A stretch of 64,000 nucleotides of DNA from Sphingopyxis sp. GTDB taxonomy: Bacteria; Pseudomonadota; Alphaproteobacteria; Sphingomonadales; Sphingomonadaceae. The stretch is from the NCBI RefSeq assembly GCF_016793825.1, contig NZ_JAEULM010000016.1, positions 33,930 through 97,929 of the forward strand. The letters are read 5' to 3'. The notes under the pieces are model-generated. The model saw only the letters and a program-made list of their open reading frames with translations, was not told the DNA's origin and searched no databases. Position numbers and translations under genes: made by a program. This document shows, one piece after another, positions 43,908-58,594 of the stretch (its first letter is position 1; each line of letters opens with the position of its first letter).

Positions 43908-43983
43908 GCCCGGGTAGCTCAGTTGGTAGAGCATGCGACTGAAAATCGCAGTGTCGGCGGTTCGACCCCGTCCCCGGGCACCA
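43908..43983 (+). tRNA. tRNA-Phe (GAA)
   Basis: GCCCGGG acceptor stem, D-arm AGCTCAGTTGGTAGAGC, anticodon loop CTGAAAA, GGTTCGA T-loop, encoded CCA; 76 nt. Confidence 0.97.
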
Positions 43984-44243
43984 CTGCTCTTCGTAATAGT
44001 CTCGCAAGCCAAGGTTGTTCAGACGGGACATGTGACGCCAAGGTCATCGGATCGGTTCCATTCTCACTGAATTACGGGCGTCATTTACGGGGGGGTCGCG
44101 CTTGCTCGGGAATCCCGTTTGTAAGCGAAGTCTGAGGCGAGTGCAGGCAGGCATCGCATCGACTTGTTTCCGTCAGTGCGGGTCCGATGGCTTCCGGCGC
44201 AACCCGCCACCGAAAATTTCAGAAATCCGGTTGCCAAACAGGT

Positions 44244-45170
44244 TCAGGATCGCAGACGCTGATTGATCTCCCGAGCGAAATCGTCGCAAAGGGCCAGGGC
44301 AGCTTTCAAAACGGTATCGGTGACTGCGGTATGCGGGCGAGCGGGCGACAGGATGACGTCGTATGTGATCTCGACCGCGGGTAGAAACGGGCGGATTACG
44401 ACCTTTTCCTGAGGATAGGCGAGCGCCGTTAGTGGTTCGACCAGCGAAACGCCGATGCCGTCCGCGACAAGGCTGTATACCGTGTGTGTTCGCTGCGTTT
44501 CGACAACGGTCAACGGCTCGACTTTTTCGCGCTGCAGCAATTTGGCGGTTGCCACGATCGGGGTCACTTCCTGTGCAAGCGCGATGAATGGCACGTCCTT
44601 CAAGGCCGACACCTCTATCACGCGCCGGTCGGCGAGCGGATGGCCGGCCGGGATGGCGCAGACGAGTTCGGCCGACAGCAATTTGCGCACGTCGAGCGTC
44701 TGGCTCGCGGTCGCGATCCCGCAAAGCCCGATGTCGGCTTCTCCCGCGGCGACCATCTGTGTGACGATCGTCGGGTCCCTCACGATAACGGCAAAAGAAG
44801 CTTTGGGATGCTGCGCGCGCACGCGCTGCAACAGTCGCGAGATGGCTATCGTCGAAAAAAGGGGCGCACAGGCGATGCGCAGTGGCGCCTCGCGCTTGTT
44901 TGGAAGCTCGCGCGCTCGATCGAGGAACAGTTCCACGTTGGCCAACGCAACCTTGGCCTGCTGATACAGCGCCAATGCGTCCGCAGTCGGGACCAGTCGC
45001 TTGCGACTGCGATCGAAGAGGGCCACGCGAAGCTCGCTCTCCAAATCCTTTATATGCCGGCTCACCGCAGGCTGCGCCAGCCGCAAGAGCTTGGCGGCAG
45101 CGCTGACACTCCCCGTATCAATCACGGCCCGAAAGACGACATATCGACGAAGATTCATATGCTCTACCAT
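44244..45170 (-). CDS. LysR-family transcriptional regulator
   Basis: HTH GSVSAAAKLLRLAQPAVSRHIKDLE, LFDRSRKRLVPT. Divergent from the catabolic operon. Confidence 0.95.
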   Translation of the reverse strand: MVEHMNLRRYVVFRAVIDTGSVSAAAKLLRLAQPAVSRHIKDLESELRVALFDRSRKRLVPTADALALYQQAKVALANVELFLDRARELPNKREAPLRIACAPLFSTIAISRLLQRVRAQHPKASFAVIVRDPTIVTQMVAAGEADIGLCGIATASQTLDVRKLLSAELVCAIPAGHPLADRRVIEVSALKDVPFIALAQEVTPIVATAKLLQREKVEPLTVVETQRTHTVYSLVADGIGVSLVEPLTALAYPQEKVVIRPFLPAVEITYDVILSPARPHTAVTDTVLKAALALCDDFAREINQRLRS

Positions 45171-45208
45171 TATATCTTATGCGCATTTATCACGCTTTTT
45201 TATATCAT
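45170..45208 (+). promoter_or_regulatory. AT-rich promoter/operator motif TTATA-N21-TTTTT-TATATCAT
   Basis: Read directly between LysR and the Adc-like gene. A near-identical architecture recurs at 54949-54988 on the minus strand. Confidence 0.4.
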
Positions 45209-45356
45209 GGAGCCGGCCTACAATCCAGTCACACAATGGGAGGGCCATCATTTTGCATTTTCGTACCAGCCTTGCACACAGACGGAACCGCGCCGCAAAG
45301 ATCGGTCGAACGTGCATGGATCTCACCGTGCGGTTGGCGCGGCGGCAGGCTTGGCA

Positions 45357-46187
45357 ATGAGTTACCGCTTCGAGCCGGGCCGCATCTACCGAATGCCAAC
45401 TCACTTTGGCCCCTCGGTCAGTCCGCGCCAGCCGCCCACAGCGAAAGAATATGACTGGTCCGCTTCCGAATGTCTTTCGGTCAGTGTGACCTTGCCGGTC
45501 GACCGTGATGGCCTCGAAGGCCTTTTGCCGCCGGGATTTGCGTTGCTTGGCGCCCCGGAGCTTTGCCTGACCTTTTCGTATCTTACCAATCTGCCATGGC
45601 TCGCCGGGCGTGGGTACAACACTCTCGGCGTGACCGTGCCCGTGCGCTATTGCGACGCGCACGTCGGCTCACTGATGCTGGTGCTGTGGGAAAATATGGC
45701 CGATCCCATTCTTACCGGGCGCGAAGAGCTCGGCATGCCGAAGATATTTTGCGACTTGCCGGCTGCGCGTCGCACCGGTGCGACCATCGACTGCACCGCC
45801 GAATGGCATGGCTTCCGCTTCCTGAATCTGACCGTTTCCAGTCTGCATGAGAGTCTGGATACAGCCTTGCCCGATCCCGCGACCTTGCCGACCCGCGGGC
45901 AACTTCTGCATTATCGCCATCTCCCTGCGGTGGGCGATTGGGGCCGGGTCAGCGTGGCGGAAGTCACGCTGACCCCGCCCGCGCGGGGGGATGCGGTCCT
46001 GGCCGTGGAAACCGGCATGGCGCGGATCGACTGGCACGTTCCGCGCTGGGAGGACATGCCGACGCAAAGCGAGATCGTGAACCGGCTTGCCAGCATCTGC
46101 GTTGCCGACAACGGCTGCGGCGAGATTCTCGTCACGCGCGGCGGGGCCTATGAGCACCGCGACCAGCAAGTGGTGGCAAGGCTATGA
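45357..46187 (+). CDS. Acetoacetate decarboxylase-like (ADC superfamily) protein
   Basis: YRMPTHFGP, YLTNLPWLAGRGYN, LVLWEN, GREELGMPK (Schiff-base Lys position). Start MSYRFEP (45357). Confidence 0.85.
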   Translation: MSYRFEPGRIYRMPTHFGPSVSPRQPPTAKEYDWSASECLSVSVTLPVDRDGLEGLLPPGFALLGAPELCLTFSYLTNLPWLAGRGYNTLGVTVPVRYCDAHVGSLMLVLWENMADPILTGREELGMPKIFCDLPAARRTGATIDCTAEWHGFRFLNLTVSSLHESLDTALPDPATLPTRGQLLHYRHLPAVGDWGRVSVAEVTLTPPARGDAVLAVETGMARIDWHVPRWEDMPTQSEIVNRLASICVADNGCGEILVTRGGAYEHRDQQVVARL

Positions 46188-46693
46188 CGGCCGGAGCCAT
46201 GATCGTCGACCTCGCAGCACATCCTGAATATGCGGAGATCGTCGCATTCTGGGTCGATCGCGAATGGGCGATTTTTTCCAAGCGGTCGTTCGCGGAGACG
46301 CTGGCGCGATATCGCGACACACCGGGACCGGGAAGACTGCCGATCACGCTCGTTGCACTCGTGGGCGGTAATCCGTGCGGCGTCGCCAGTCTGCGCGAGA
46401 AGGACAGTTTCGACTGGCTGCCGGATATTTGTCACTGGGTTTGCGGAGTCTATGTGTCGCCGGACAGGCGCGGCATGGGGGTCGCCGGTCACCTCTGCCG
46501 CGCACTGGAGGTCCGTGCCGTGCAATTGGGCATCCATCAACTCCATCTCGCTACCGAGACAGAACGGGACTCGCTCTATCATCGGCTGGGCTATGCCGAG
46601 GTCGGGCAAACCGAACATCACGGTATGAATTATTTGCTGCGTAAATCGCTGCTATCCAACAAGGCTTATGGTGGAGGCGATGATGCACGCTAA
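46184..46693 (+). CDS. GNAT N-acetyltransferase
   Basis: GVASL, W..GVYVSPDRRGMGVA..L, LHLAT, LYHRLGY. Coupled to the upstream gene by ATGA. Confidence 0.88.
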   Translation: MTAGAMIVDLAAHPEYAEIVAFWVDREWAIFSKRSFAETLARYRDTPGPGRLPITLVALVGGNPCGVASLREKDSFDWLPDICHWVCGVYVSPDRRGMGVAGHLCRALEVRAVQLGIHQLHLATETERDSLYHRLGYAEVGQTEHHGMNYLLRKSLLSNKAYGGGDDAR

Positions 46694-48143
46694 TCCTGCC
46701 CCCTCCTTCATATCGGGTAGGATGCGGATCGGCCATGCATGGATTGCGGCCGATCCGCATCCTACCATCAGCCCGGCGACCGGGCAGTTGATCGGTTCAG
46801 CCTCTCTGGGAACAGCGGGACATATCGACGATGCGGTTGTCGCCGCGCGGTGCGCGGCTCAACGGCTGGCGCGGCTGAGCGTATGGGACCGCGCCGCGCT
46901 TTGCCGCCGCGTGGGGCAGGCGATAGCCGCCCGGGCGGATGAGCTGGCAATGCTCCTTGCCAACGAGCAGGGCAAGCCATTCGAAAGCGAAGCAAAGGAC
47001 GAGTTGGCCTTTGCCGTCGAAGCCTTCGAAGTGGCTGCCGAGGCAGTGAAGCATGTCAACGGCACGAGCTTTCCGCTGCGCGAGGCGGGTCGTCTGGGGA
47101 TCACCGCCCTGCGTCCGCGCGGCGTTTACGGTGTGATCACCCCCTGGAATTACCCGATAGCCATTTCCTGCGCCTATTATCTGGCCCCGGGACTGGCGGC
47201 CGGGAACGCGCTGGTGTGGGTGCCCGCGCTCACGACATCGCTGGTCGCCTCGTTGTTGATGGAATGCCTGGAAGCGGCGGACTTGCCCGATGGCGCCGTG
47301 AATCTCGTCACCGGGCATGGCGCCGTCGTCGGCGATGCGCTCGCCGGCCATCGCGATGTCGATGCCGTCGGCTTTACCGGCAGCACGGCGACGGGACGGA
47401 GCGTCGCCATGCGCGCTGCGGGCAAACCCGTTTCACTGGAACTCGGCGGCAACGGCCCGACCATCGTCTTCGCCGACGCCGATCTAGACCTTGCTGCCGC
47501 ACGGATCTGCGAGGGCGCATTCACGAACGCCGGGCAGACCTGCACCGCGACGGAGCGCGTGCTCGTCGAACGATCTGTTCATGATGAGTTGCGCGAACGA
47601 CTTGTTGCCCGCGCCTCTGCGGTGGTTCTTGGCGATCCGTTCGATCCGGCGACCATGATGGGGCCACTGCACAATCAGGACACCGTCGACAAGGTTCTGG
47701 CGCATCTGGACGATGCGTGCGCGGCGGGCGCGACCATCGATTGCGGCGGTGCGGTCGCGACGGGTTTCGCCACGCCGCTCTATTTTCCGGCGACGGTCGT
47801 CTCGGGCGTCGGGGTTGGGACGCTGCTCAACAGGGAGGAGACATTCGGCCCGGTCGTGCCGCTGCTCTCCTTCGCGGACGAGGAGGAGCTTCAGGCGATC
47901 ACGCGCGCCAGCCGTTATGGTCTTTTCGCGTCGGTGTTCACGCGCTCCGTCAATACGGCGATGCGCCAGGCCGGGCGGCTGCGCGCCGGGGTGGTCCACA
48001 TCAACGAAATGTCCGCCTATTGGGACCTGACCGTGCCCGGTGGCGGCGCGTCCGGCAGCGACAGCGGCACCGGGCGCATCGGGATCGCCCAGTCGATCCG
48101 GGCGATGTCCGACGAGGTGACGGTCACCCTGGGGTTCGGATGA
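46680..48143 (+). CDS. NAD(P)-dependent aldehyde dehydrogenase
   Basis: ITPWNYP, FTGSTATG, ELGGNGP, AGQTCTA, EETFGPV. Start at 46680 follows a GGAGG RBS. Confidence 0.95.
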   Translation: MMHANPAPSFISGRMRIGHAWIAADPHPTISPATGQLIGSASLGTAGHIDDAVVAARCAAQRLARLSVWDRAALCRRVGQAIAARADELAMLLANEQGKPFESEAKDELAFAVEAFEVAAEAVKHVNGTSFPLREAGRLGITALRPRGVYGVITPWNYPIAISCAYYLAPGLAAGNALVWVPALTTSLVASLLMECLEAADLPDGAVNLVTGHGAVVGDALAGHRDVDAVGFTGSTATGRSVAMRAAGKPVSLELGGNGPTIVFADADLDLAAARICEGAFTNAGQTCTATERVLVERSVHDELRERLVARASAVVLGDPFDPATMMGPLHNQDTVDKVLAHLDDACAAGATIDCGGAVATGFATPLYFPATVVSGVGVGTLLNREETFGPVVPLLSFADEEELQAITRASRYGLFASVFTRSVNTAMRQAGRLRAGVVHINEMSAYWDLTVPGGGASGSDSGTGRIGIAQSIRAMSDEVTVTLGFG

Positions 48144-49321
48144 CGGCGCCCGCCTGGCGCCGTCGTCTTGGCGCCTGGGCGGACGAGCTCCGCGCCCTCC
48201 GCCACGACCTTCACCGCTACCCCGAAACCGCATTCGAAGAGGTTCGCACCGCGGCGACGGTCGCGCGGCTGCTCCGCCGCTGGGGTGTCGAAACGCACGA
48301 AGGCATCGCCGGAACCGGCGTGGTCGGCGTCATTCGGGGCGGCGATGGGCCGATGATCGGGCTTCGCGCCGACATGGATGCGCTCAACATGGAGGAAGCG
48401 AATGCGTTCGCTCACCGCTCCGAAGTGCCGGGCAAGATGCACGGTTGCGGGCATGACGGCCACACGGTGATGCTGCTGGCGGCCGCTCGGCTGCTGGCGG
48501 AGAGGCCGCACTTCGGCGGCACGGCGATCCTGATCTTTCAGCCCGCCGAAGAGGCCGAAGGCGGTGCCCAGGCGATGATCGATGCAGGACTTTTCGACCG
48601 CTGGCCGGTCGATGCCGTGTTCGCGCTGCACAATCTGCCCGGGCTGCCGATCGGCCATTTCGCGTTGCGGCCAGGACCCATCATGGCGGGTGTCGAGGAT
48701 TTCACGATCAGGATCGAAGGCAAGGGCGGCCATGGCGGCATTCCCCACAGGACGATCGATCCGATTCCGGCGATCGCCGAGATCGTGCTGGCCTGCCAGA
48801 CCATCGTGGCCCGGGCGATCGACCCGCTCGCCGCCGCGGTCGTGAGCGTCACGCGCCTGTCCGCCGGAGCCAGCAACAATGTCGTGCCCGACTCCGCACA
48901 GATTGGCGGCACGTTTCGCTATCTGGACGGCGCGACAGGGGACGTGATCAGGAGCAGGCTCACGGCGCTGACCCGCGGCGTGGCCGCCGCCCACGGCGTG
49001 ACGGGGCATTTCGATTGCTTCGACGCCTATCCGCCCACCGTCAATAGCGATGCTGAAACCGCATTCTGCGCAGCGACACTGCGTACGTTCGTTGGCGCGG
49101 AACGGCTGGATGAGAGCACCCCGCCGCTGATGGGCGCTGAGGATTTTTCCTTCATGCTCAACCGTCGGCCGGGCTGTTACGCCTTCATCGGCAACGGCGA
49201 CGGAGCGGGTTCGTGCATGATCCACAACCCGCGCTATGATTTCAACGATGCCAGCATCCCTATCGGCGCGGAGTATTTCGTGCGGCTGGTCCACGCCTTC
49301 TGTGCAAGGTCCGGCCGATGA
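48140..49321 (+). CDS. M20 amidohydrolase (aminoacylase/hippurate hydrolase-like)
   Basis: LHRYPE, LRADMDAL, MHGCGHDGH, FQPAEE, GAEDF, IHNP. Start MTAPAW (ATGA overlap). Confidence 0.93.
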   Translation: MTAPAWRRRLGAWADELRALRHDLHRYPETAFEEVRTAATVARLLRRWGVETHEGIAGTGVVGVIRGGDGPMIGLRADMDALNMEEANAFAHRSEVPGKMHGCGHDGHTVMLLAAARLLAERPHFGGTAILIFQPAEEAEGGAQAMIDAGLFDRWPVDAVFALHNLPGLPIGHFALRPGPIMAGVEDFTIRIEGKGGHGGIPHRTIDPIPAIAEIVLACQTIVARAIDPLAAAVVSVTRLSAGASNNVVPDSAQIGGTFRYLDGATGDVIRSRLTALTRGVAAAHGVTGHFDCFDAYPPTVNSDAETAFCAATLRTFVGAERLDESTPPLMGAEDFSFMLNRRPGCYAFIGNGDGAGSCMIHNPRYDFNDASIPIGAEYFVRLVHAFCARSGR

Positions 49322-50622
49322 AGGCGCCCGAACGCGCCACCCTGGTGCTGGCCGAGGCGTGTGAGCGCTTCGCGCACTTCGGTCTCCTCTCCATCCTCGC
49401 TCTTTATCTCACCGCAAGCACGGCAACGGGCGGATCGGGGTGGGCGACCGGCGACGCGCTGAAGCTGGTCGGCACCTACAGCGCAGGAATCTATGCCGTT
49501 TCGGTCGTAGGGGGGTGGCTGGCCGATCGCGTCATCGGCACCTGGCGCGGCGTGAAGGCAGGGTCGATCGCCATGGTGGCCGGTCATGCCATATTGGTCT
49601 CGTCGCAGTTCTTCCACGCCTTTGGCCGCTGGATCGACCCGCAGACGATGCTCTATGTCGGCCTGTCGCTGATCGTCCTGGGCACAGGGTTGTTCAAGCC
49701 CAACGTGACGGTCCTCTTCGGTCAGGCCTTTCCGGCCGAAGGAGTGGCACGCGAACGTGGCTTCCTGCTCTTTTACGTCGGGATCAACTTTGGTTCGATG
49801 CTGGGGCCGATACTGGCAGGTGGACTGGGCGAGCGGGTCGCGTGGGGGTGGGGCTTCGTTGCTGCGGGTTCGGCGTCGCTGATCGCCTGCCTGGCGTTGG
49901 CGATACCTGGTCGGCGCGCGATCCCGGTTTCGTCCGCGACGATCGCCCCGGAAGCGGGTGGCGGGAGCTGGCGGGACGTCGCGTCACGCTATCGCGTGCT
50001 GCTGGCCATGGCGCTCGCGTCCGTGCTGTTCTGGACCGCGCTGGAGCAAAGCGCCGGGCTGCTGTCGCTCTATGCCTATCATCATACCGATCGCTTTCTG
50101 CTGGGTTTCGAGGTTCCGGCGACATGGATGCAATCGCTCGAGCCCTTGCTCGTCCTGGCGGTTGCGCCGGCCGTGGCCGGCTTGTGGCTGTATCTTGACC
50201 GAACAGGCCGCGTTCCGGGCGTCGGAACCCGGGCGGCGATAGGGCTATTTTCGCTGACCTTTGCCTTTGTCCTGTTCGTCGGCGCGACGATGGAACGCGA
50301 CGCGGTGGGCAAAAGCAGCCTTGCGTGGCTGGTCGCCGGCTATCTTTCGATCGCCACGGCCGAGGTGCTTATCTGGACGATGAGCCTGTCGATGGTGACG
50401 AAAATCGCGCCGCCTGCCCGGTCCGGACAGGTGATGGGAGCCTGGTATCTTACCTATGCCCTGGGTGCGTTTCTGGCCGGTCGGATCGGCGCGGAAGTCG
50501 ATTCATGGGGTGATCGCGTCGTGTTCGGCGTGATTGCGGCGCTGACCGGCGGAGCCGCGCTGCTCTATCTGCTCGCGCGGCGGCGAATGGCGGTCTGGGA
50601 ACGGCGGGCGCTGTCGCTTTAG
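49318..50622 (+). CDS. POT/PTR family proton-coupled oligopeptide transporter
   Basis: EACERFAHFG (ExxERF motif variant), GGWLADR, GLFKPN, FYVGINFG, SMVTKIAP. Confidence 0.92.
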   Translation: MKAPERATLVLAEACERFAHFGLLSILALYLTASTATGGSGWATGDALKLVGTYSAGIYAVSVVGGWLADRVIGTWRGVKAGSIAMVAGHAILVSSQFFHAFGRWIDPQTMLYVGLSLIVLGTGLFKPNVTVLFGQAFPAEGVARERGFLLFYVGINFGSMLGPILAGGLGERVAWGWGFVAAGSASLIACLALAIPGRRAIPVSSATIAPEAGGGSWRDVASRYRVLLAMALASVLFWTALEQSAGLLSLYAYHHTDRFLLGFEVPATWMQSLEPLLVLAVAPAVAGLWLYLDRTGRVPGVGTRAAIGLFSLTFAFVLFVGATMERDAVGKSSLAWLVAGYLSIATAEVLIWTMSLSMVTKIAPPARSGQVMGAWYLTYALGAFLAGRIGAEVDSWGDRVVFGVIAALTGGAALLYLLARRRMAVWERRALSL

Positions 50623-50632
50623 GGTCCCGATC

Positions 50633-51481
50633 CTAGCGCCCCGACGCCATGGGATCCTGGTCCTGGCTGCGGTGACCTTCGAAGCCCGCGCAAACCGCGA
50701 TGCTCTGGCTGGTGATCAGGCGGCCCAGGTCGGACAGGAGAAAGATGACCAGGGCGGCGACATCGACGGCTTCGACCGCGACGCGCAGGGAGTTGGCGGC
50801 GATTGTGTCGCCCCACAGGTCCTCGGCGGACACGCCGCTCGCCTCCGCCGCGGCGGCAATGACCGTGCGGACGCGATCTCCCTCGACGGTGCCGGGGAGG
50901 ACGGTGTTGACCCGGATCGCATGGCGTCCGAGATCCATCGCCAGCGTCTCCGTGAAACCAATCACCGCCTTTTTCGACGTGGCATAGGCCAGCCGCATGG
51001 GAAAACCGCCCCGCGCGATCGCTGCCGACGACAGGTTGACGATCGAGCCGCCGTTCCTCTTGAGCCAGGGAATGGCGGCTCTCGTGCAATAGAACATCCC
51101 GTCGAGGTTGACGGCAAGCGTTCGTCGCCAGGCTTCGACCGAAATCCCGTCCGGCGACATGGTGGGTCCGGCGATGCCCACGCCATTGACGAGGCCGGTC
51201 ACCCCCCCCATCATCGTTGCGGCATTGTTGACGGCTTCGTTCGCCGCATCGGCGTCGGCGACGTCGCAATGAATCGCGCAAAGCTGGCCGGTAGCAGGTA
51301 GTCGACCGATGGCATCGACATCGGCGTCGAGGATCACCACCGATGCGCCGGACGCGACGGCCATCTCGGCGATCGCGCGCCCTATCCCGCTGCCGCCGCC
51401 CGTGATGACGACCCGCTGCTCCGAAAGGTCCAGCGTCAGGGCTTGCGACAAGGTCATCGTTGCGAAACTTTCATCGATCAT
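50633..51481 (-). CDS. SDR family oxidoreductase
   Basis: TGGGSGIG, LVNGVG, NLSS, YATSK, VLPG. Start MIDESF overlaps the MFS stop (ATGA). Confidence 0.93.
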   Translation of the reverse strand: MIDESFATMTLSQALTLDLSEQRVVITGGGSGIGRAIAEMAVASGASVVILDADVDAIGRLPATGQLCAIHCDVADADAANEAVNNAATMMGGVTGLVNGVGIAGPTMSPDGISVEAWRRTLAVNLDGMFYCTRAAIPWLKRNGGSIVNLSSAAIARGGFPMRLAYATSKKAVIGFTETLAMDLGRHAIRVNTVLPGTVEGDRVRTVIAAAAEASGVSAEDLWGDTIAANSLRVAVEAVDVAALVIFLLSDLGRLITSQSIAVCAGFEGHRSQDQDPMASGR

Positions 51482-52749
51482 CCTACCTCGATCATGGCCG
51501 CGCGCTTTGCAGCGACCCCGAAAAGCAGGAATGCGAGCGCCGAAGACATCGTCGCCATCAGCGCCAGTATGACACCCAGACTGAGCGCGCCCGCAAAAAC
51601 CTGTTGATTGAGCAGGGCGACGGTGGGCGGCCCCGCGCCCAACCCTGCGATCGCGATCGTCGCCGTCATCGCGGCCGTCGTGATTCCGATCCTGCTGGCC
51701 GGGATTACCTGTGTCAGCACCGCGTACGCCGCGACCGGCGCGGCCGTGACCGCCCCAACCCACAGCGCCAGCGCGAGGAGAACGGACGGTGTCATCGTCG
51801 CGGCGAAGATCAGGCTGCCGAACAAGCCCAACAGGGCTATGCGGCCCGCCGTCCGCAATTGGGCGGGCACGCCGCCGCGGCGCAGGGCACGATCGGCCAG
51901 GGCCCCACCCAGCAAGGTTCCGCCGATCGAGGCGGTGATCGTGATTGCGCCGATCGTCTTGGCGGCCGCTGCCGTCGCCATGCCGTGTTCGCGGGTCAGC
52001 AGCGCCGCTGTCCAGGCGAAGATGCCGCTATCGGCGAAAGCCATCAGGGCAATGGCGCCGCAGATGAGAGCTGCGATGACTGCTCCTGGTCGAAAGGACG
52101 ACACGGCTTCGACGACCCGCTGTGCCGATCCCTGCCTTTGCGGTTCGGGAAAGGCGAGCAGCAACAGCGCAACAAGCGGCCCCGGCACGGAAAGGATCAG
52201 AATCGTCTGCCGCCAGGGCGCGCCGGCATATTCGAACAGGGTGTTGTGAAACATGTTCGTTAGAACCAGGTCATACACGACGCCGCTTGCCGCGAACGCT
52301 GTTCCATACCCTACGGTGACGCCGGTCATGAAGATGCCGATCGCCATGCCGCGCCGTTCGGTCGTGAAGCTGTCGGTGATGATCGAAACGGCAATCGGGA
52401 TGAGTGCCGCCTCGCCAACGCCGACGGCAATCCGCGCCGCGAAAAGTGCGCCATAGGTCGGGGCGAGGCTGCACGCCGCCGTCGCCCCGCTCCACAGCAC
52501 GAGCATCGCCGCTGCGAGTCTGATGCGGGGAATCCTGTCGGTCGCCATGCCAAGGGGCAGCGCCGCGATCCCATAAGATAGCGCGAACGCCGGTCCGAGC
52601 AGCAAACTGACCGCCGTGTCATCGATCAGGAACTGCGTCTTCAACTGATCGATGAACGGGTGCAGCACCAGCCGGTGGGAGAAGGCGATGACGGCTGTCG
52701 CGGTCAGCAACGAGAGCAGCAGCCAGGATTGCCAGCGATCGCGTGTCAT
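51478..52749 (-). CDS. MFS transporter (spinster/aromatic-acid-like)
   Basis: PLGMATDRIPR, ARIAVGVGEAA, FTTERRG.A.GIF, and about 12 hydrophobic segments. Confidence 0.9.
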   Translation of the reverse strand: MTRDRWQSWLLLSLLTATAVIAFSHRLVLHPFIDQLKTQFLIDDTAVSLLLGPAFALSYGIAALPLGMATDRIPRIRLAAAMLVLWSGATAACSLAPTYGALFAARIAVGVGEAALIPIAVSIITDSFTTERRGMAIGIFMTGVTVGYGTAFAASGVVYDLVLTNMFHNTLFEYAGAPWRQTILILSVPGPLVALLLLAFPEPQRQGSAQRVVEAVSSFRPGAVIAALICGAIALMAFADSGIFAWTAALLTREHGMATAAAAKTIGAITITASIGGTLLGGALADRALRRGGVPAQLRTAGRIALLGLFGSLIFAATMTPSVLLALALWVGAVTAAPVAAYAVLTQVIPASRIGITTAAMTATIAIAGLGAGPPTVALLNQQVFAGALSLGVILALMATMSSALAFLLFGVAAKRAAMIEVG

Positions 52750-52770
52750 CGTGCCGACCGCGCCAGGAGA

Positions 52771-54906
52771 TCAGAAACGGACGCCGAGACGGGCCTCGAA
52801 GGTTCGCGGAGCCCCATAACGCTCGACGACGCCGAAGATATCATAGTCGTTCCTGGTGACCGCATAGAGCTTGTCCGTGATATTGAGGACGGCCATAGAA
52901 AAATAGATCGCGTCATTCACGTCGTATCGGGCGGTCGCTGACCACAGCGCATACCCCTTTTGTCGCTCGATAGCCGGATTGTTGAATCCTGGCAGCAGCG
53001 TGTTCGATTGATATTTGACGTCGGTTCTGAGCTGCAATGCGTTGTGATCGCCGAGCGGCAGATCATACGCGATTCCGCCGGTCAACGTCCACTTCGGGGT
53101 CAATGGCAACTCGATCCCCGACAGATCGTCTCCGCGCGGGTTGACGAAGTTGCGGATCGTTGAATCAACGTAGAGAATATGCGCGTCCAATGTGAGCCGG
53201 TCGGTGGCTCGTGCGTTCGCGCTTGCCTCTATGCCGTAGACTTTGGCGTTCGCATCGTTGGTCACCCGCGTGACGTTGCCGATCGGGTCGAGCGTGCGGA
53301 GCTGGACCTTCGAATAGTCATAATAGAAGCCCGCGATCTCGTAACCGATGACTCCGGTCCGGCCCTTGGCGCCGATTTCGTACGCGTTCAGCGCCTCCGG
53401 CCCGTAAAGCCCCAGATCGCCTCCGACGTTGAACCCGCCCGCCTTCAGACCCCGCGAGTAATTCGCATAGAACATCGACGAAGCCGACGGGCGCCAGCGG
53501 AGTTGAAGCGACGGAGTGAAGCTTTTCGAGCGCGTGATCCCGGACTCATCGGGCGACCCCGCGCGGCTGCTGTAGGCCGCGCGCTTTCGATCGGACGTGT
53601 AACGCCCGCCGCCGATCAGGGTCAGATCGTCGGACAGATCGACTTCGGCGTTTATGAAGGCGGCGAACGACGTCGACCTGAACCTTGTTTCCTCATCAAA
53701 GATCACGAAGTCGCCCGAGCTGGGGAGCCGATAGTCGAGGCCTACCTTGCCCGTTTCGCGAAACGCATAGAGACCGGCGACGACGCGCGTGTGTGCCGCG
53801 CTGTCCGTCCTGATCTGAAGTTCTTGCGACACGGCGCGCGACGATTGGTCGTGGGTTTCGATTTCATCGATAATACCGGCCGGATTGCCGGCCGCATCGG
53901 TGTCGAGCACATACTTCATCTTGAAATGCGTGAAGCCGGTGATCGATTGCAATTCGACCGCGCCAAGGGGCACCGAGACGTTGAGGGCGCCCACCAGCGC
54001 ACTGGTGCGACGTGTGGTCGGCAGGTCGGTCGATATCAAACGCGGGCCACGCCGTTGAATGCTGCCAGCATACACGCCGCCGGGCGCGCTCAATTCCGGG
54101 CTGTACTGAAAGCCCGTACCCAGGCCGCCATCGTCGTCGACATACTGGACCGCCAGCCGGATTTTCGCATCACCCGCCTTGAAAACGCCAATCCCGCGCA
54201 AGGCCACGATATACTGATTGTCCAGCGGCGCGTCGTGCAGGAAGCTTTTGGTATAGCCGTCGTCTTTCGCAACGGCTCCCGACAGGCGAATGCCGCTTTC
54301 CTCGGCGATCGGCACGCCCACGGCGAAACGGACGCGATACAGATCGAAACTGCCCAGCCCGAGCGAGACCTCGCCGCCCCGCGCCACGCTGCTGTCGGGG
54401 ATCAGGTTGATGGCACCGCCCGTGGCGTTGCGACCATAGAGGGTGCCCTGCGGACCTTTCAGAATTTCGATACGATCGATGTCGAACAGCTCGGTGAGCG
54501 CCATGTCGGGCTGCGGCAGATAGACGCCGTCGAAATGGACCGCGACCGAAGGGTTCGCGCCAAAGCTGGCGGCGTTGCTGCTGACGCCGCGGAGCGCGAT
54601 GTTGGTGCCATCCACACGCGGAGCGAAGTTCAGTCCCGGCGTAAGGCGCGTCAGCTCGGCGGTGGAGTTGATGCCGGCCCCGGCCAGCGTATCGGCGCTG
54701 AAGACGTCGAGTGTCGACGGGACGTCGAGGGTGGTTTCGGCCTTCTTGCGAGCCGTAACGACGATTTCGTCGGAGGATACGGCTCCGCTGCCGGTTTGGG
54801 CTTCGGACGGAGCGGGCATCAGAATGATGCCGGCCACGCCTACCTGCAGCGTTGCGGCCAGTTGGCGGATACGCTTCCGTGATCGACCCGAGATTGCACT
54901 TTTCAT
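52771..54906 (-). CDS. TonB-dependent receptor
   Basis: TonB box EIVVTARK, RIEILKGPQGTLYGRNATGG, terminal PRTFEARLGVRF. Start MKSAIS (54906). Confidence 0.95.
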   Translation of the reverse strand: MKSAISGRSRKRIRQLAATLQVGVAGIILMPAPSEAQTGSGAVSSDEIVVTARKKAETTLDVPSTLDVFSADTLAGAGINSTAELTRLTPGLNFAPRVDGTNIALRGVSSNAASFGANPSVAVHFDGVYLPQPDMALTELFDIDRIEILKGPQGTLYGRNATGGAINLIPDSSVARGGEVSLGLGSFDLYRVRFAVGVPIAEESGIRLSGAVAKDDGYTKSFLHDAPLDNQYIVALRGIGVFKAGDAKIRLAVQYVDDDGGLGTGFQYSPELSAPGGVYAGSIQRRGPRLISTDLPTTRRTSALVGALNVSVPLGAVELQSITGFTHFKMKYVLDTDAAGNPAGIIDEIETHDQSSRAVSQELQIRTDSAAHTRVVAGLYAFRETGKVGLDYRLPSSGDFVIFDEETRFRSTSFAAFINAEVDLSDDLTLIGGGRYTSDRKRAAYSSRAGSPDESGITRSKSFTPSLQLRWRPSASSMFYANYSRGLKAGGFNVGGDLGLYGPEALNAYEIGAKGRTGVIGYEIAGFYYDYSKVQLRTLDPIGNVTRVTNDANAKVYGIEASANARATDRLTLDAHILYVDSTIRNFVNPRGDDLSGIELPLTPKWTLTGGIAYDLPLGDHNALQLRTDVKYQSNTLLPGFNNPAIERQKGYALWSATARYDVNDAIYFSMAVLNITDKLYAVTRNDYDIFGVVERYGAPRTFEARLGVRF

Positions 54907-54948
54907 GACGGTTCCCCCCTTGTGTTTTGGGGAGCATAGGTCGCGGCG

Positions 54949-54988
54949 ATGATATACAAAAAGACACAAACTGGGCAATTGGTTATAA
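54949..54988 (-). promoter_or_regulatory. AT-rich motif TTATA-N21-TTTTT-G-TATATCAT upstream of the TonB receptor
   Basis: The reverse complement of 54949-54988 matches the architecture at 45170-45208 with one extra base. Confidence 0.4.
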
Positions 54989-55102
54989 CGATGCAGCATG
55001 AACTCGAGCCTCATCCTGCGGCTCGATACGGCGATCTCGGGCGTCGCCGGGTGAACGCTCAGTCGCGGTCGGTGGCGGCCGCCTCAGGTGATGCAGCCGA
55101 TA

Positions 55103-55540
55103 TCATATGGTGCTGAGCAACAGGCTGGTTTCGCTATTCTCCACGCCGTCGATCGTCCGCACTTCGCGAAGGACACGGTCGAAATCGGAGAGGCTTTGCG
55201 CGCTGATGTCGGCGATCAGGTCCCAGTTGCCGTTCGTGGTGTGCAGCGCGCGGATTTCGGTTATCCCGCGCAGTTTCTGGATGACCTGGGTGGTCGATCG
55301 GCCGTTGACCTCGATCAGCATGACCGCACGCACAGTGAGGTCGTCATAATCCTCTCGTACGCGCACGGTGAAACCCAGCAGCGCGCCGGTGTCGAGCAGT
55401 CGGTCGAGCCGGTTCTGGATGGTGCCTCGCGCAACCCCCAGCGCGCCCGCCAGCTTCGACAAGGAGGCGCGCCCATCCACCCTGAGGAGGGCGATGATAC
55501 GGCGATCGAGGTCGTCAGGGATGAATTTCGCGATTCCCAT
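55103..55540 (-). CDS. Lrp/AsnC-family regulator
   Basis: DDLDRRIIALLRVDGRASL..LA..LGVARGT...RL; TTNGNWDL. Divergent from ocd. Confidence 0.93.
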   Translation of the reverse strand: MGIAKFIPDDLDRRIIALLRVDGRASLSKLAGALGVARGTIQNRLDRLLDTGALLGFTVRVREDYDDLTVRAVMLIEVNGRSTTQVIQKLRGITEIRALHTTNGNWDLIADISAQSLSDFDRVLREVRTIDGVENSETSLLLSTI

Positions 55541-55694
55541 ATGATCTGCCTTGTCAAGTGCGTTGCTGACGGTTTGTATAACGAAACTATAAAAACTCTC
55601 CAGATCTGATCAATTTTCAGGGCGAGATGGTGATTTCGACAGACGATAGGGGCAATTAGACTTGGCGGGCCCCTGCCATTGTCAAGGATCCACC

Positions 55695-56741
55695 ATGCCA
55701 CCCGCACCTTCCCAACTCGCCTATATCCCGTTCGTGAGCGTCGAAAACATGATGCGCTTCATCCACCATTTCGGTGTCGAGCAGGTGCTTATCGAACTCA
55801 CCGATGCGATCGAGGCCGACTATCGGCGATGGGATGTCTTTGAGAAGATCCCGCGCCTCGCGTCGCACTCGCGCGATGGGGTTATCGAATTGATGCCGAC
55901 ATCCGACGGCGAGGCGTTCAGCTTCAAATATGTCAACGGCCATCCGAGCAATATGGCGAAGGGTTTTCAAACGGTGGCGGCGTTCGGCCTGCTTGCGCGG
56001 GTCGATACCGGCTATCCGCTGATGCTTGCCGAAATGACCCTGCTGACGGCTTTTCGCACAGCCGCGACGTCGGCCATGGTCGCGCGCCACCTGGCCCCGC
56101 GCGAGGCCGGAGTGATGGCAATGATCGGGAATGGCGCGCAGGCTGAATTTCAGGCTCTGGCGATGAAAGCCGTGGTCGGGGTCAAAGAGGTGCGGCTGTA
56201 CGATATCGATGCGAAGGCAACCGAAAAGACCGTCCGCAATCTTCAGGGAAGCGGCTTGCGGGTCGTCTCGTGCAGCAGCGCCCAGGATGCGATCGAGGGT
56301 GCGCATATCATCACGACCTGCACCGCCGACAAGGCCTATGGAACGATCCTGACCGACAATATGGTGGGTTCGGGAATCCATATCAATGCGATCGGCGGCG
56401 ATTGCCCGGGCAAGACCGAGCTTCACCGGGACATCTTGTCGAGGGCGGACACTTTCGTCGAGTTCGAGCCTCAAACGCGGATCGAGGGCGAAATTCAGCA
56501 GATGGACCCAAGCTATCAGGTGACCGAATTCTGGAGGGTCCTGACCGGCGAGGCCGAAGGGCGGCGCGATGCCCGGCAGATTACGCTGTTCGACAGTGTA
56601 GGGTTCGCGACCGAGGATTTCTCGGCGCTTCGCTATATCCATTCGAAGTTGCAGGGGACCGATTTCTTCCAGCAGATCGATATCCTCGCCGACCCCGACG
56701 AGCCACGCGACCTTTTCGGGATGCTGCAACGCGCCGCCTGA
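55695..56741 (+). CDS. ocd: Ornithine cyclodeaminase
   Basis: GVIELMP, KYVNGHP, LTAFRTAATS, GNGAQAEFQ, GGDCPGKTEL, FDSVGFATED. Start MPPAPS (55695). Confidence 0.95.
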   Translation: MPPAPSQLAYIPFVSVENMMRFIHHFGVEQVLIELTDAIEADYRRWDVFEKIPRLASHSRDGVIELMPTSDGEAFSFKYVNGHPSNMAKGFQTVAAFGLLARVDTGYPLMLAEMTLLTAFRTAATSAMVARHLAPREAGVMAMIGNGAQAEFQALAMKAVVGVKEVRLYDIDAKATEKTVRNLQGSGLRVVSCSSAQDAIEGAHIITTCTADKAYGTILTDNMVGSGIHINAIGGDCPGKTELHRDILSRADTFVEFEPQTRIEGEIQQMDPSYQVTEFWRVLTGEAEGRRDARQITLFDSVGFATEDFSALRYIHSKLQGTDFFQQIDILADPDEPRDLFGMLQRAA

Positions 56742-56827
56742 TATCGGCGCACAAGGATCAGCGTTCGCCCTGGCCGGCCGCCGGTTTTCATGGCGCGAGA
56801 CTGGTCGCGGGGAATGGGGACGGAATA

Positions 56828-57775
56828 ATGGAAAAAAGAAAAATCACGCTGATCGGTGCGCCCGTGGAATTGGGCGCCGGCCTGCGCGGCTGCGCAATGG
56901 GACCAAGCGCGATGCGTATTTCGGACCTTGCGGCCACCCTTGCCGCCCTTGGACATGATGTGGCCGATGACGGCGATGCCGAGCCCGTGGCAGTGTCCGA
57001 CATCGGCTTGCGCGGCAACGCGCGGAACGCGGAAAATATCGTCGGCTGGGCACGCGCGCTTGAAGACGCCGCGTACAGGACGTTGAAGGCCGGGCGCCTG
57101 CCCCTGTTCATGGGTGGCGATCATGCGCTCGCGATCGGAAGCGTCTCCGGCGCTGCCCGGCATGCGCGCGAGTTAGGGCGTCCGCTTTGCGTTGTCTGGC
57201 TCGATGCGCATGCGGATTTCAACACGCCGGCCACCTCCGAATCGGGGAACATGCACGGTATGCCTGTCGCCTTTTATTGCGGTGAACCGGGTTTTGACGG
57301 CATTCTGGGCCACGATCGGGCGACTGTCGATCCCGGCAATGTTTTCATGCTCGGCATCCGGTCGGTCGATGAGCGCGAGCGCCAGCTGATCGCGGAGCGC
57401 GGCGTGCAGGTTTTCGACATGCGCGCGATCGACGAATTCGGCGTGGCGCCGATCGTCCGCCGTATCCTTGCCCATGTCGAGCGACTGGGCGCACTGCTTC
57501 ACGTCAGTCTCGATGTTGACTTCCTCGATCCGTTCATTGCACCGGGCGTCGGGACAACGGTCAGTGGCGGCGCCAATCTTCGCGAGGCGCACTTGATCAT
57601 GGAGATGCTCTGCGAATCGGGCCTCACGACTTCCATGGATCTCGCCGAACTCAACCCCTATCTCGACAATCGCGGAAAAAGTGCGCGCCTGCTGACTGAT
57701 CTCACCGCCAGTCTTTTCGGACGCAAGGTGCTCGACAAGGCTGCCATCCACTCGTCGCTGGTGCACCATTTTTGA
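56828..57775 (+). CDS. rocF: Arginase
   Basis: Mn ligands in GGDHALAIG, DAHADFN, HGMP, SLDVDFLDP, and ELNP. Start MEKRKI (56828). Confidence 0.95.
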   Translation: MEKRKITLIGAPVELGAGLRGCAMGPSAMRISDLAATLAALGHDVADDGDAEPVAVSDIGLRGNARNAENIVGWARALEDAAYRTLKAGRLPLFMGGDHALAIGSVSGAARHARELGRPLCVVWLDAHADFNTPATSESGNMHGMPVAFYCGEPGFDGILGHDRATVDPGNVFMLGIRSVDERERQLIAERGVQVFDMRAIDEFGVAPIVRRILAHVERLGALLHVSLDVDFLDPFIAPGVGTTVSGGANLREAHLIMEMLCESGLTTSMDLAELNPYLDNRGKSARLLTDLTASLFGRKVLDKAAIHSSLVHHF

Positions 57776-58257
57776 CGAACAAGGCCTCGGTCGATCCGGG
57801 ATCGATACGCCAAGTGCCACGCGGAGCCGCCAAATACGCTTTCGGCTCGTCCAGAGACGGGTTCGAGACCTTCTGCGGCGATTATCCATGCCATATCGGC
57901 GGTTCTTCGACCCGAAACGGGGGCGGGTCTGGCTCGGCCGTCGATTGTCACGATCGGCGGGGCAATCCGGATTTCATCGGGCCGCGACATAGCGCGCCGC
58001 GTTTGATCGCCAGATGGATTTGGCAGCTCCGGCGTCGAGCTTTTCGAATCCGCGGCACGGGCAGGGGCAGGGTCGGGTCGACGGGCGACAAGCCGGTCAT
58101 TCTGCGCGCCGCGCGACCGAAATCGACCAGATCATATGAAAATACTATGCGAGGCGGCATTTCATTCTCTCGAATTCAAACGCGCCCCGCTCCTATTCGG
58201 TAGCCCGCAGACGACTCGTGCCACGTCCCGTGGCCAGCGCCTTGCTGGAGCAACACC

Positions 58258-58344
58258 ATGCAGGATCTCATCTGGGTCGGCATCACCCTCACTCTCCTCG
58301 CCGCGAGCCTCGGTTATGCGCGGCTGCGCGCATCTGGGTGGTGA
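58258..58344 (+). CDS. 28-aa single-TM peptide resembling the small ORF that precedes kdpFABC
   Basis: GGAG RBS at 58247-58250, then MQDLIWVGITLTLLAASLGYARLRASGW*. It is below the ORF-track cutoff, and the similarity is recalled rather than searched. Confidence 0.5.
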   Translation: MQDLIWVGITLTLLAASLGYARLRASGW

Positions 58345-58594
58345 CCGCGAATAGCCCGGCATCACCGCGACAGGCACCATCTTTGCGTCCACTGCATTCT
58401 GGTGCCCATGACCGAGCAACCGATACCGTAGCGTAAACTGTTGCTTTTTGGTCACTAATACAGGGAAAATTGGTCGTTTTCTCGCGCGCGCGTTGACGCG
58501 GGAAGGCGGTTGGCTACAGCGGCCGCCACCGTCGGCATCTCCCACCTAGGTCCTATTGGACCTGCGCTTGGCGGTTTTGGAGAGAGAAACCATC

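Follow-up and report, generated by a model that had tools for sequence, protein, structure and literature searches.

A LysR-linked gene cluster around an acetoacetate decarboxylase-like enzyme in Sphingopyxis sp.: a candidate acetyl-protected route for the breakdown of a small amino compound

A stretch of 64,000 nucleotides from Sphingopyxis sp. (assembly GCF_016793825.1, contig NZ_JAEULM010000016.1, positions 33,930 to 97,929), called the window below and numbered from its first letter, carries at 44244-54906 nine genes which form a horizontally acquired uptake-and-breakdown system. It is probably a variant of acyl-protected catabolism, built around an uncharacterised clade of the acetoacetate decarboxylase (ADC) superfamily. 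The nine-gene combination is more than chance, since it recurs in unrelated bacteria and since both of its operons are preceded by a motif which is unique in the genome. Our reading is that the system is controlled by a LysR-type regulator and serves the uptake and degradation of a small, hydroxyl-bearing amino compound by successive action of an acetyltransferase, a dehydrogenase, the ADC-like enzyme, an aldehyde dehydrogenase (ALDH) and a deacylase; a probability of about one half is given to this reading as a whole. The compound degraded would probably be a 3-hydroxy amino acid, which would enter the cell in free form, in a short peptide or as an N-acyl conjugate.

Genes were taken from a listing of open reading frames with translations, and domains from Pfam and NCBIfam scans. 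The LysR-type regulator (44244-45170, minus strand; PF00126 and PF03466) is divergent from the first operon, which lies on the plus strand and encodes the ADC-superfamily Schiff-base enzyme (45357-46187; PF06314, 1.7e-32), a GNAT N-acetyltransferase (46184-46693; PF00583, 47.8 bits against a cut-off of 20.7), an NAD(P)-dependent ALDH (46668-48143; PF00171, 3.2e-130, 435 bits), an M20D N-acyl-amino-acid amidohydrolase (48140-49321; TIGR01891, 334.6 against a cut-off of 153.75) and a POT-family proton-coupled importer of the peptide type with 434 amino acids (49318-50622; PF00854; TIGR00924, 212.9 against a cut-off of 130.2). The second operon, on the minus strand, begins with a TonB-dependent outer-membrane receptor (52771-54906; plug and barrel domains) and continues with an MFS transporter (51478-52749; PF07690) and an SDR dehydrogenase (50633-51481; PF00106 and PF13561). 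The operons converge, with 10 nt between the stop of the POT gene (50622) and that of the SDR gene (50633). A first reading made from the sequence only had described these nine genes, their convergence, the motif GREELGMPK and a tight coupling by ATGA overlaps. All of these are present; the ATGA overlaps were found at ADC/GNAT, ALDH/M20, M20/POT and MFS/SDR, and the overlap of GNAT and ALDH amounts to 11-26 nt, set by the choice of the ALDH start, and is not of the ATGA type.

The ADC-like protein contains TGREELGMPKIF, where GREELGMPK carries Lys129. It passed the gathering score of PF06314 with 113.3 bits (cut-off 29.8), and its AlphaFold model (pLDDT 79) matched structures of the ADC superfamily with TM scores of 0.60-0.75, all other structures giving 0.25 or less. 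Arg122, Glu123 and Lys129 are invariant across 20 homologues, with the motif GRE..G.PK kept, and GREELGMPK aligns with GREIWGFPK of the Legionella ADC. The closest solved relative is 3CMB, a structural-genomics entry without assigned function from the archaeon Methanoculleus marisnigri JR1 named "acetoacetate decarboxylase"; it was the best structure match of a profile of the clade (E 3e-46), agrees in fold with TM 0.71-0.75 and shares the lysine motif GxREx-GxPK, at about 28% identity. True acetoacetate decarboxylases (EC 4.1.1.4; 3BH2, 3BGT, 3C8W), which have the same fold and the same Schiff-base lysine in GRE..G.PK, followed weakly and were the sole characterised class that the profile detected. 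Identities are 14-21%, and their Lys-Lys pair is replaced, the position after Lys129 being Ile in the window protein and Ile, Leu, Val or Tyr in its relatives. Their YTESG segment aligns with YNTLG, the position of Glu61 being Thr or Leu in the clade. True ADCs belong to solvent fermentation, whereas the gene considered here lies in a cluster for the import of an amino compound.

The sequence-only reading had pointed to MppR as an example of non-decarboxylating chemistry in this superfamily. The analogy holds at the level of the superfamily only: MppR, an enzyme of enduracididine biosynthesis, and the aldolase-dehydratases Sbi00515 and Swit_4259 share the fold (TM 0.60-0.70) and the lysine Schiff base and demonstrate that the scaffold can support reactions other than decarboxylation. 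It fails at the level of the family. Identities are 15-20% (15% for MppR in the fold alignment), none of the three was detected by the clade profile even at E=10, and MppR, Sbi00515 and true ADC are about equally distant in fold from the ADC-like protein. MppR works with the pyridoxal phosphate (PLP)-dependent partners MppP and MppQ; partners of this type were looked for, and no gene with an aminotransferase fold was present in any of the clusters. The protein is assigned to the ADC superfamily, outside the true-ADC and MppR families, and it is from the gene context that a decarboxylase reaction is proposed for it here.

Beyond the nearest two homologues of the ADC-like protein, with 99% and 81% identity, values drop to about 52%. 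About 115 loci were examined for their gene context, and the open reading frames of 13 proteobacterial loci were tallied by all-against-all clustering. The ADC gene is present in all 13, GNAT in 12, ALDH in 10, a 3HCDH-type dehydrogenase in eight and an SDR in three, one of which (L015) is some 6 kb away from the ADC gene; a dehydrogenase of either type is found in 9-10 of the loci. A PotF-like ABC set with a GntR regulator occurs in seven, POT in four, and an S15 hydrolase and an ArgE-type M20 enzyme in three each. The GNAT homologues (40-52% identity) adjoin the ADC gene in all 12 loci which have one. Co-occurrence in other genomes, the lack of which would have counted against a common system, is therefore found. 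The conserved core is smaller than nine genes, and M20, POT, MFS and TonB receptor are replaceable parts.

The most similar arrangement was found in a metagenome-assembled genome (MAG) of Pseudomonadota (L001), where a divergent LysR gene stands beside SDR-GNAT-ALDH-POT-S15 hydrolase-ADC; identities to the window proteins are 40% for LysR, 51% for ADC, 52% for GNAT, 55% for ALDH, 34% for POT and 52% for SDR. A LysR gene also adjoins the 81% homologue of the ADC gene. A Steroidobacteraceae MAG (L003) and locus L108 have the order GNAT-POT-ALDH-ADC, with genes for an S15 hydrolase and for an M20 enzyme of the ArgE type alongside. On pAt plasmids of Agrobacterium and in six other alphaproteobacterial loci (Rhizobiales, Paracoccaceae, Parvibaculaceae) GntR-ABC ATPase-(ALDH)-GNAT is divergent from genes for a substrate-binding protein, two permeases, ADC and 3HCDH. 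A sphingomonad of another genus (G013, locus L100) has ADC-ALDH-GNAT-ArgE-type deacetylase, and Devosia-type loci (L008, 2056-12118; L115, 728-10290) have ALDH-Dpp ABC-ADC-3HCDH-BKACE and no GNAT. The importer thus varies between POT (window, L001, L003 and L108), PotF-like ABC and Dpp-type ABC. The slot of the deacylase is filled by M20D in the window and by an ArgE-type acetylornithine deacetylase in L003, L108 and L100, with NCBIfam cut-offs exceeded in L003 and L100; in L001 an S15 CocE/NonD hydrolase takes this place as a candidate deacylase or conjugate-releasing enzyme.

In a maximum-likelihood tree of 86 ADC-like proteins all GNAT-linked enzymes, together with those of Devosia, formed one clade (support 100/99). 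Its sister clade of 75 entries (38-44% identity; L016-L089) comprises proteins from Chloroflexota, Poribacteria and others, many of them sponge-associated judging by the assembly names. In 56 of the 75 the distance between an SDR gene and the ADC gene is about 1.5 kb or less; in many it is about 0-300 nt, and often the two genes are adjacent. GNAT, ALDH and transporter are usually missing. ADC-SDR is here a very common, uncharacterised two-gene module. In Rhizobiales the 3HCDH gene overlaps the stop of the ADC gene by ATGA. Three ADC paralogues are encoded on one metagenomic contig (L114, 1509-12705), as 3HCDH-ADC, as a lone ADC, and as SDR-ADC-aldehyde:ferredoxin oxidoreductase-3HCDH; in this anaerobe-type locus an unrelated aldehyde oxidiser occupies the position of the ALDH. 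Another locus has the order SDR-ADC-acyl-CoA synthetase. The closest structures to the Agrobacterium 3HCDH protein are enzymes of free acids, namely L-gulonate 3-dehydrogenase/lambda-crystallin and FHMPC dehydrogenase; models of the carnitine-dehydrogenase type gave the 3HCDH partners their best scores, below the cut-offs. SDR and 3HCDH are unrelated folds, each with 3-hydroxy-acid dehydrogenases among its members, and their occurrence in the same position argues for a common reaction. The pair of ADC and dehydrogenase is the ancient unit, which points to oxidation of a 3-hydroxy acid and subsequent decarboxylation of the 3-oxo acid rather than to chemistry of the MppR type. Conversion of a 3-hydroxy acid to a 3-oxo acid, followed by Schiff-base decarboxylation, is the most economical explanation of the pairing.

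The joining of the two operons to one system, as first proposed from their arrangement, is supported by the SDR and by the promoters. Among 18 SDR matches in the genome the window SDR is by far the best match of the SDR inside the L001 operon (52% identity, 252 bits, against 146 for the next) and is its clear orthologue. A 13-nt motif, TTTTKTATATCAT, occurs twice in the window (0.03 copies expected), once upstream of each operon and in the orientation of that operon. No other exact copy exists anywhere in the 3.86-Mb genome, and just one more site comes within a single mismatch of it. The first copy, TTTTTTATATCAT, lies at 45196-45208 (plus strand) upstream of the ADC operon and includes the -10-like hexamer TATCAT. 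The second, TTTTGTATATCAT, at 54949-54961 (minus strand), is located 43-55 nt upstream of the start codon of the receptor and overlaps a promoter-like site, given by the promoter scan as TTGCCC-18-TATCAT at 54978-54949. A -10-like TATCAT with a poor -35 is as in activator-dependent promoters, and the segment with the motif is conserved in the intergenic region of L107, the locus of the 81% homologue. The LysR protein is a probable activator of both operons. The stretch of about 140 nt between the motif and the ADC start (45209-45356) is also partly conserved in L107 (2812-3007), e.g., TTTGCATtTTC..ACCAGC, and may serve as a leader or for regulation at a second site.

Both operons lie in a strain-specific insertion of 14.4 kb (43984-58422) directly after a tRNA-Phe (GAA) gene at 43908-43983 on the plus strand (ARAGORN), which is its left boundary. 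Homology with 30 genomes of the same genus ends at this tRNA gene, at about 43985. Of three relatives examined, two resume synteny at 58423/58435 and have only 2-2.7 kb at the site; the third has unrelated DNA there. From these two limits it follows that all nine genes are inside the insertion. The ADC gene is present in nine of 201 genomes of the family and absent from two genomes of the same genus which were sampled. Neither an integrase gene nor a direct repeat of the tRNA end, as at an att site, was found in the insertion.

In the proposed route, the compound would cross the outer membrane through the TonB-dependent receptor and the inner membrane through the POT carrier, perhaps also through the MFS transporter. 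The GNAT enzyme would acetylate the free amino group with acetyl-CoA, whereby the amine would be blocked from reacting with the carbonyl made next. The SDR, or in Rhizobiales the 3HCDH-type enzyme, would oxidise the hydroxyl to that carbonyl and yield a 3-oxo acid, from which the ADC-like enzyme, through a Schiff base at Lys129, would remove CO2 to give an N-acetyl-amino aldehyde. The ALDH would turn this into an N-acetyl amino acid, and M20D would finally strip off the acetyl group, with an ordinary amino acid and acetate as products. M20D, or the S15 and acylase enzymes of the relatives, may in addition first free the compound from a conjugate. The order of the steps, decarboxylation as the reaction of the ADC-like enzyme and the aldehyde as its product are what we infer from the companions of the gene.

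The presence of GNAT in 12 of the 13 loci and of different enzymes (M20D or ArgE-type) in the slot of the deacylase fits an acetylation of the amine before carbonyl formation and a deacetylation at the end. A protect/deprotect pair of GNAT and M20 had been suggested before, by which an amino aldehyde could be oxidised without cyclising; the suggestion is strengthened by these findings, whereas the Rhizobiales versions have no deacylase. The ALDHs of the 13 loci belong to different subfamilies (36-55% identity) and have therefore been recruited more than once. A combined role in uptake and breakdown, also suggested earlier, fits, since importers are encoded in all relatives, including a binding-protein-dependent ABC importer in Rhizobiales. 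The Agrobacterium binding protein (L004, 7244-8284) is closest to PotF-like proteins which bind gamma-aminobutyrate (GABA; Atu4243, Pf622), then to binders of mannopine, agropine and polyamines. Together the importer types suggest a small zwitterionic amino compound as substrate. Where the importer is of the POT or Dpp type, the compound may enter in the form of a peptide or an amide, and the extra hydrolases would be explained thereby.

Several points weigh against this route. The clade has no counterpart of Glu61 of true ADC and no second lysine, so decarboxylation is not assured; the fold is no nearer to true ADC than to the aldolase-dehydratase Sbi00515 or the cyclase MppR. The GNAT-type loci L003, L108 and L100 have no dehydrogenase nearby, L007, L011 and L015 have no ALDH, and the Rhizobiales clusters possess GNAT without a deacylase. 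If the hydroxyl oxidised were a secondary one, decarboxylation would give a ketone and leave the ALDH without a role. M20 may have no other role than that of a peptidase with which the route begins. Finally, the example with serine worked out below may be wrong, serine having simpler catabolic routes.

Some of these observations would agree with a different reaction of the central enzyme within the same acetyl-protected system. The ADC-like protein could be a Schiff-base retro-aldolase or hydratase-aldolase similar to Sbi00515 and Swit_4259, which would cleave the oxidised intermediate (a beta-hydroxy ketone or an enone) to an N-acetyl-amino aldehyde for the ALDH and, as second product, a small ketone or keto acid. 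Such enzymes, and MppR, are as near by fold as true ADCs (TM 0.60-0.70), the lack of a Glu61 counterpart and of the second lysine speaks for it, and an aldehyde-oxidising enzyme does accompany the ADC gene. The clade profile, however, finds true ADCs and none of Sbi00515, MppR and Swit_4259 at E=10; partners of the 3HCDH type typically yield 3-oxo acids, the classic substrates of decarboxylation; and the clusters share no enzyme that would deal with a second product of cleavage. We regard aldol cleavage as unlikely.

Oxidation and decarboxylation can lead to an aldehyde only from a 3-hydroxy acid with a primary hydroxyl, of which serine is the simplest natural amino compound. The route would then proceed from N-acetylserine through N-acetyl-aminomalonate semialdehyde, N-acetylaminoacetaldehyde and N-acetylglycine to glycine and acetate. 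A skeleton of the serine type would be the simplest fit and uses every conserved enzyme; the odds on this specific skeleton are low. Chemical precedents are the serine 3-dehydrogenases and the degradation of tropic acid, which in Pseudomonas AT3 proceeds via phenylmalonic semialdehyde and phenylacetaldehyde to phenylacetate. A fragment of the penaldate type, derived from opened beta-lactams, would feed into this serine-type route as well, and the acylase, PF00144 and S15 neighbours of some loci would fit it, with few links and other explanations possible for them. In its most specific form the proposal would make the clade a hitherto unrecognised class of Schiff-base decarboxylases for 2-substituted 3-oxopropanoates (malonic-semialdehyde-type), with the GNAT-linked branch acting on 2-(acylamino)-3-oxopropanoate in a folate- and PLP-independent route from serine-type compounds (D- or L-) or penaldate-type beta-lactam fragments to glycine via N-acetylaminoacetaldehyde and N-acetylglycine; the chance of this being correct in all parts is slim.

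Other substrates were considered and rejected. With homoserine or homoserine lactone the ADC-like enzyme would have no role. Gamma-amino-beta-hydroxybutyrate (GABOB) and carnitine-like acids would give a ketone and leave the ALDH without a role, and carnitine is not acetylatable. Ectoine or N-acetyl-diaminobutyrate (N-acetyl-DABA) would require a transaminase, and polyamines an oxidase or transaminase. At least one conserved enzyme would be without a role for 5-aminolevulinate, hydroxylated arginine or lysine, leupeptin-type peptide aldehydes, ornithine lipids and siderophore recycling. True acetoacetate decarboxylation was rejected as the main role, since a good carbon source would be lost by it and since most clusters have no gene that would supply acetoacetate.

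The cluster could also serve for detoxification or salvage of an antimetabolite, peptide-borne or of the beta-lactam type, with hydrolases opening the conjugate, GNAT neutralising the toxic amine, and ADC, ALDH and M20 disposing of a penaldate-like N-acyl-aminomalonate-semialdehyde fragment as N-acylglycine. Hydrolase families known for such substrates adjoin the core, i.e., a PvdQ-like Ntn acylase and a PF00144 protein in G013, a penicillin-amidase family protein next to the ADC gene in L001, and S15 CocE/NonD enzymes. The GNAT protein is weakly similar to phosphinothricin/methionine sulfoximine (MSO) acetyltransferases, as it is to PA4866/PAT-type amino-acid acetyltransferases. POT carriers accept peptide mimics, and the M20D family includes hippurate hydrolase. 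Against these similarities stand the Rhizobiales version, which has no hydrolase and a binding protein closest to GABA-binding proteins; the acylases of L001 and G013, which are just 23% identical; and the D-glutamate genes DgcN/DgcA of G013, which could explain its hydrolases independently. A role in antimetabolite disposal is considered very unlikely. That the receptor-MFS-SDR operon is a mere neighbour, serving another nutrient such as a siderophore or an organic acid, would agree with the best family of the receptor (a siderophore-receptor subfamily, below its cut-off), with the absence of MFS and receptor from the cluster in the other loci compared and with the different, aromatic-type context in which an MFS gene stands beside ADC-like genes of other sphingomonads, but is highly improbable in view of the exact 13-nt motif occurring genome-wide at the two promoters only, the SDR orthologous to one within the L001 operon and the single 14.4-kb insertion holding both operons.

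ALDH, M20D, POT and SDR have motifs expected of their families. The catalytic segments LELGGNGP and NAGQTCTA are present in the ALDH, whose best NCBIfam families are betaine-aldehyde, aminobutyraldehyde and succinic-semialdehyde dehydrogenases, all under the cut-off, so that no equivalog was reached. M20D contains the metal-binding MHGCGHDGH; its closest structures are ILR1-like enzymes, YxeP and an N-acyl-glutamine aminoacylase. The ExxER motif of the POT carrier reads EACERF, with HF in place of the following YY; typical bacterial POT carriers are about 60 residues longer. The SDR has the cofactor motif ITGGGSGIG and the catalytic YATSK. For the MFS protein the best NCBIfam family is a D-galactonate transporter, far under the cut-off, with a weak likeness to anion:cation symporters (ACS-type); it could serve for import, as a second carrier of the inner membrane, or for the export of a product. 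MFS genes beside ADC-like genes of other sphingomonads were dropped as support for the second operon, the context being of an aromatic type (FAA hydrolase, Amidohydro_2) and the ADC subfamily a different one. In sphingomonad G176 (L102, 6991-12882), for example, the row is MBL hydrolase-fumarylacetoacetase-Amidohydro_2-ADC-MFS, with about 38% identity of the ADC-like protein; this is an aromatic or diketo-acid type of context, unrelated to the nine-gene system.

Further observations concern the surroundings of the clusters. In the window the same insertion holds genes for an Lrp/AsnC regulator (55103-55540, minus strand), a bona fide ornithine cyclodeaminase (55662-56741, plus strand; 559.6 bits, cut-off 350) and an arginase (about 56828-57775, plus strand; 286.8, cut-off 227.6). 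These three do not adjoin the cluster in the other genomes read; arginine or ornithine as an end product may be a functional link to the cyclodeaminase and arginase genes. In G013 (L100, 3064-19012) the operon is divergent from the genes for the PvdQ-like acylase (810 bits, cut-off 950) and the PF00144 serine hydrolase and is near the DgcA/DgcN genes; the other flank carries a gamma-glutamyl-amine synthetase-like gene, an RpiR regulator, an N-formylglutamate amidohydrolase-family gene and an amino-acid permease. The ABC-type cluster of the Agrobacterium plasmids CP138323 and pAt1D1609b (L004/L009; conjugative pAt plasmids of crown-gall isolates) has a chemoreceptor/CheW pair at a distance of about 1-3 kb and a LuxR-type gene at about 3.4 kb; on pAt plasmids this version could be a plant-metabolite or opine-like trait. 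The Devosia locus has an MlrC-like peptidase gene upstream; in L008 a 4HBT thioesterase gene follows BKACE, and the contig of L115 ends at that point.

No paper describing the cluster or the ADC clade was found in full-text searching, and the rhizoSMASH paper makes no mention of ADC, homoserine or carnitine; the nine genes probably serve to degrade a small hydroxylated amino compound, by a route for which there is as yet no description. If the proposal is true, it would provide the first physiological role for a large uncharacterised branch of the ADC superfamily (2,335 database matches at E <= 0.001), which is common in Chloroflexota and Poribacteria, many of them apparently sponge symbionts by the names of the assemblies, and occurs also on pAt plasmids of Agrobacterium. 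It would also be a further example of acetyl-protected catabolism. Should the ADC step make an aldehyde from a 3-oxo acid, malonate semialdehyde decarboxylase, whose fold is unrelated, would have in this enzyme a counterpart which works through a Schiff base. The version of Rhizobiales is conserved and compact (nine or ten genes) and encodes a binding protein, which makes the substrate directly accessible to ligand screening.

Two groups of known pathways offer themselves for comparison. The route of L-carnitine by dehydrogenase, BKACE and thioesterase has in common the conversion of a 3-hydroxy acid to a 3-oxo acid, and the Devosia-type loci, where ADC-3HCDH stands directly before BKACE, join the ADC clade to such a carnitine-like set for 3-oxo-acid cleavage. 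It differs in that the window has neither BKACE nor thioesterase, and the GNAT of the window would be useless on a quaternary amine such as carnitine. Precedents for acyl-protected catabolism are the arginine succinyltransferase (AST) pathway with AstA-E, the aerobic beta-lysine pathway of Pseudomonas B4 and SnaA-YxeK-YxeP of B. subtilis. Their logic would be matched by that proposed for the cluster: an acyl-CoA-dependent N-acyltransferase, chemistry on the protected molecule (an ALDH or keto-acid step) and a dedicated deacylase. The window, L003, L108 and L100 each have a GNAT together with a deacylase; L001 has GNAT with an S15 hydrolase, and the Rhizobiales have a GNAT only. YxeP of B. subtilis, as mentioned, is among the closest structures to the M20 enzyme of the window. 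Unlike these routes, the window cluster has no transaminase, monooxygenase or BKACE, and has at its centre a step by an ADC-family enzyme and a dehydrogenase which none of them uses.

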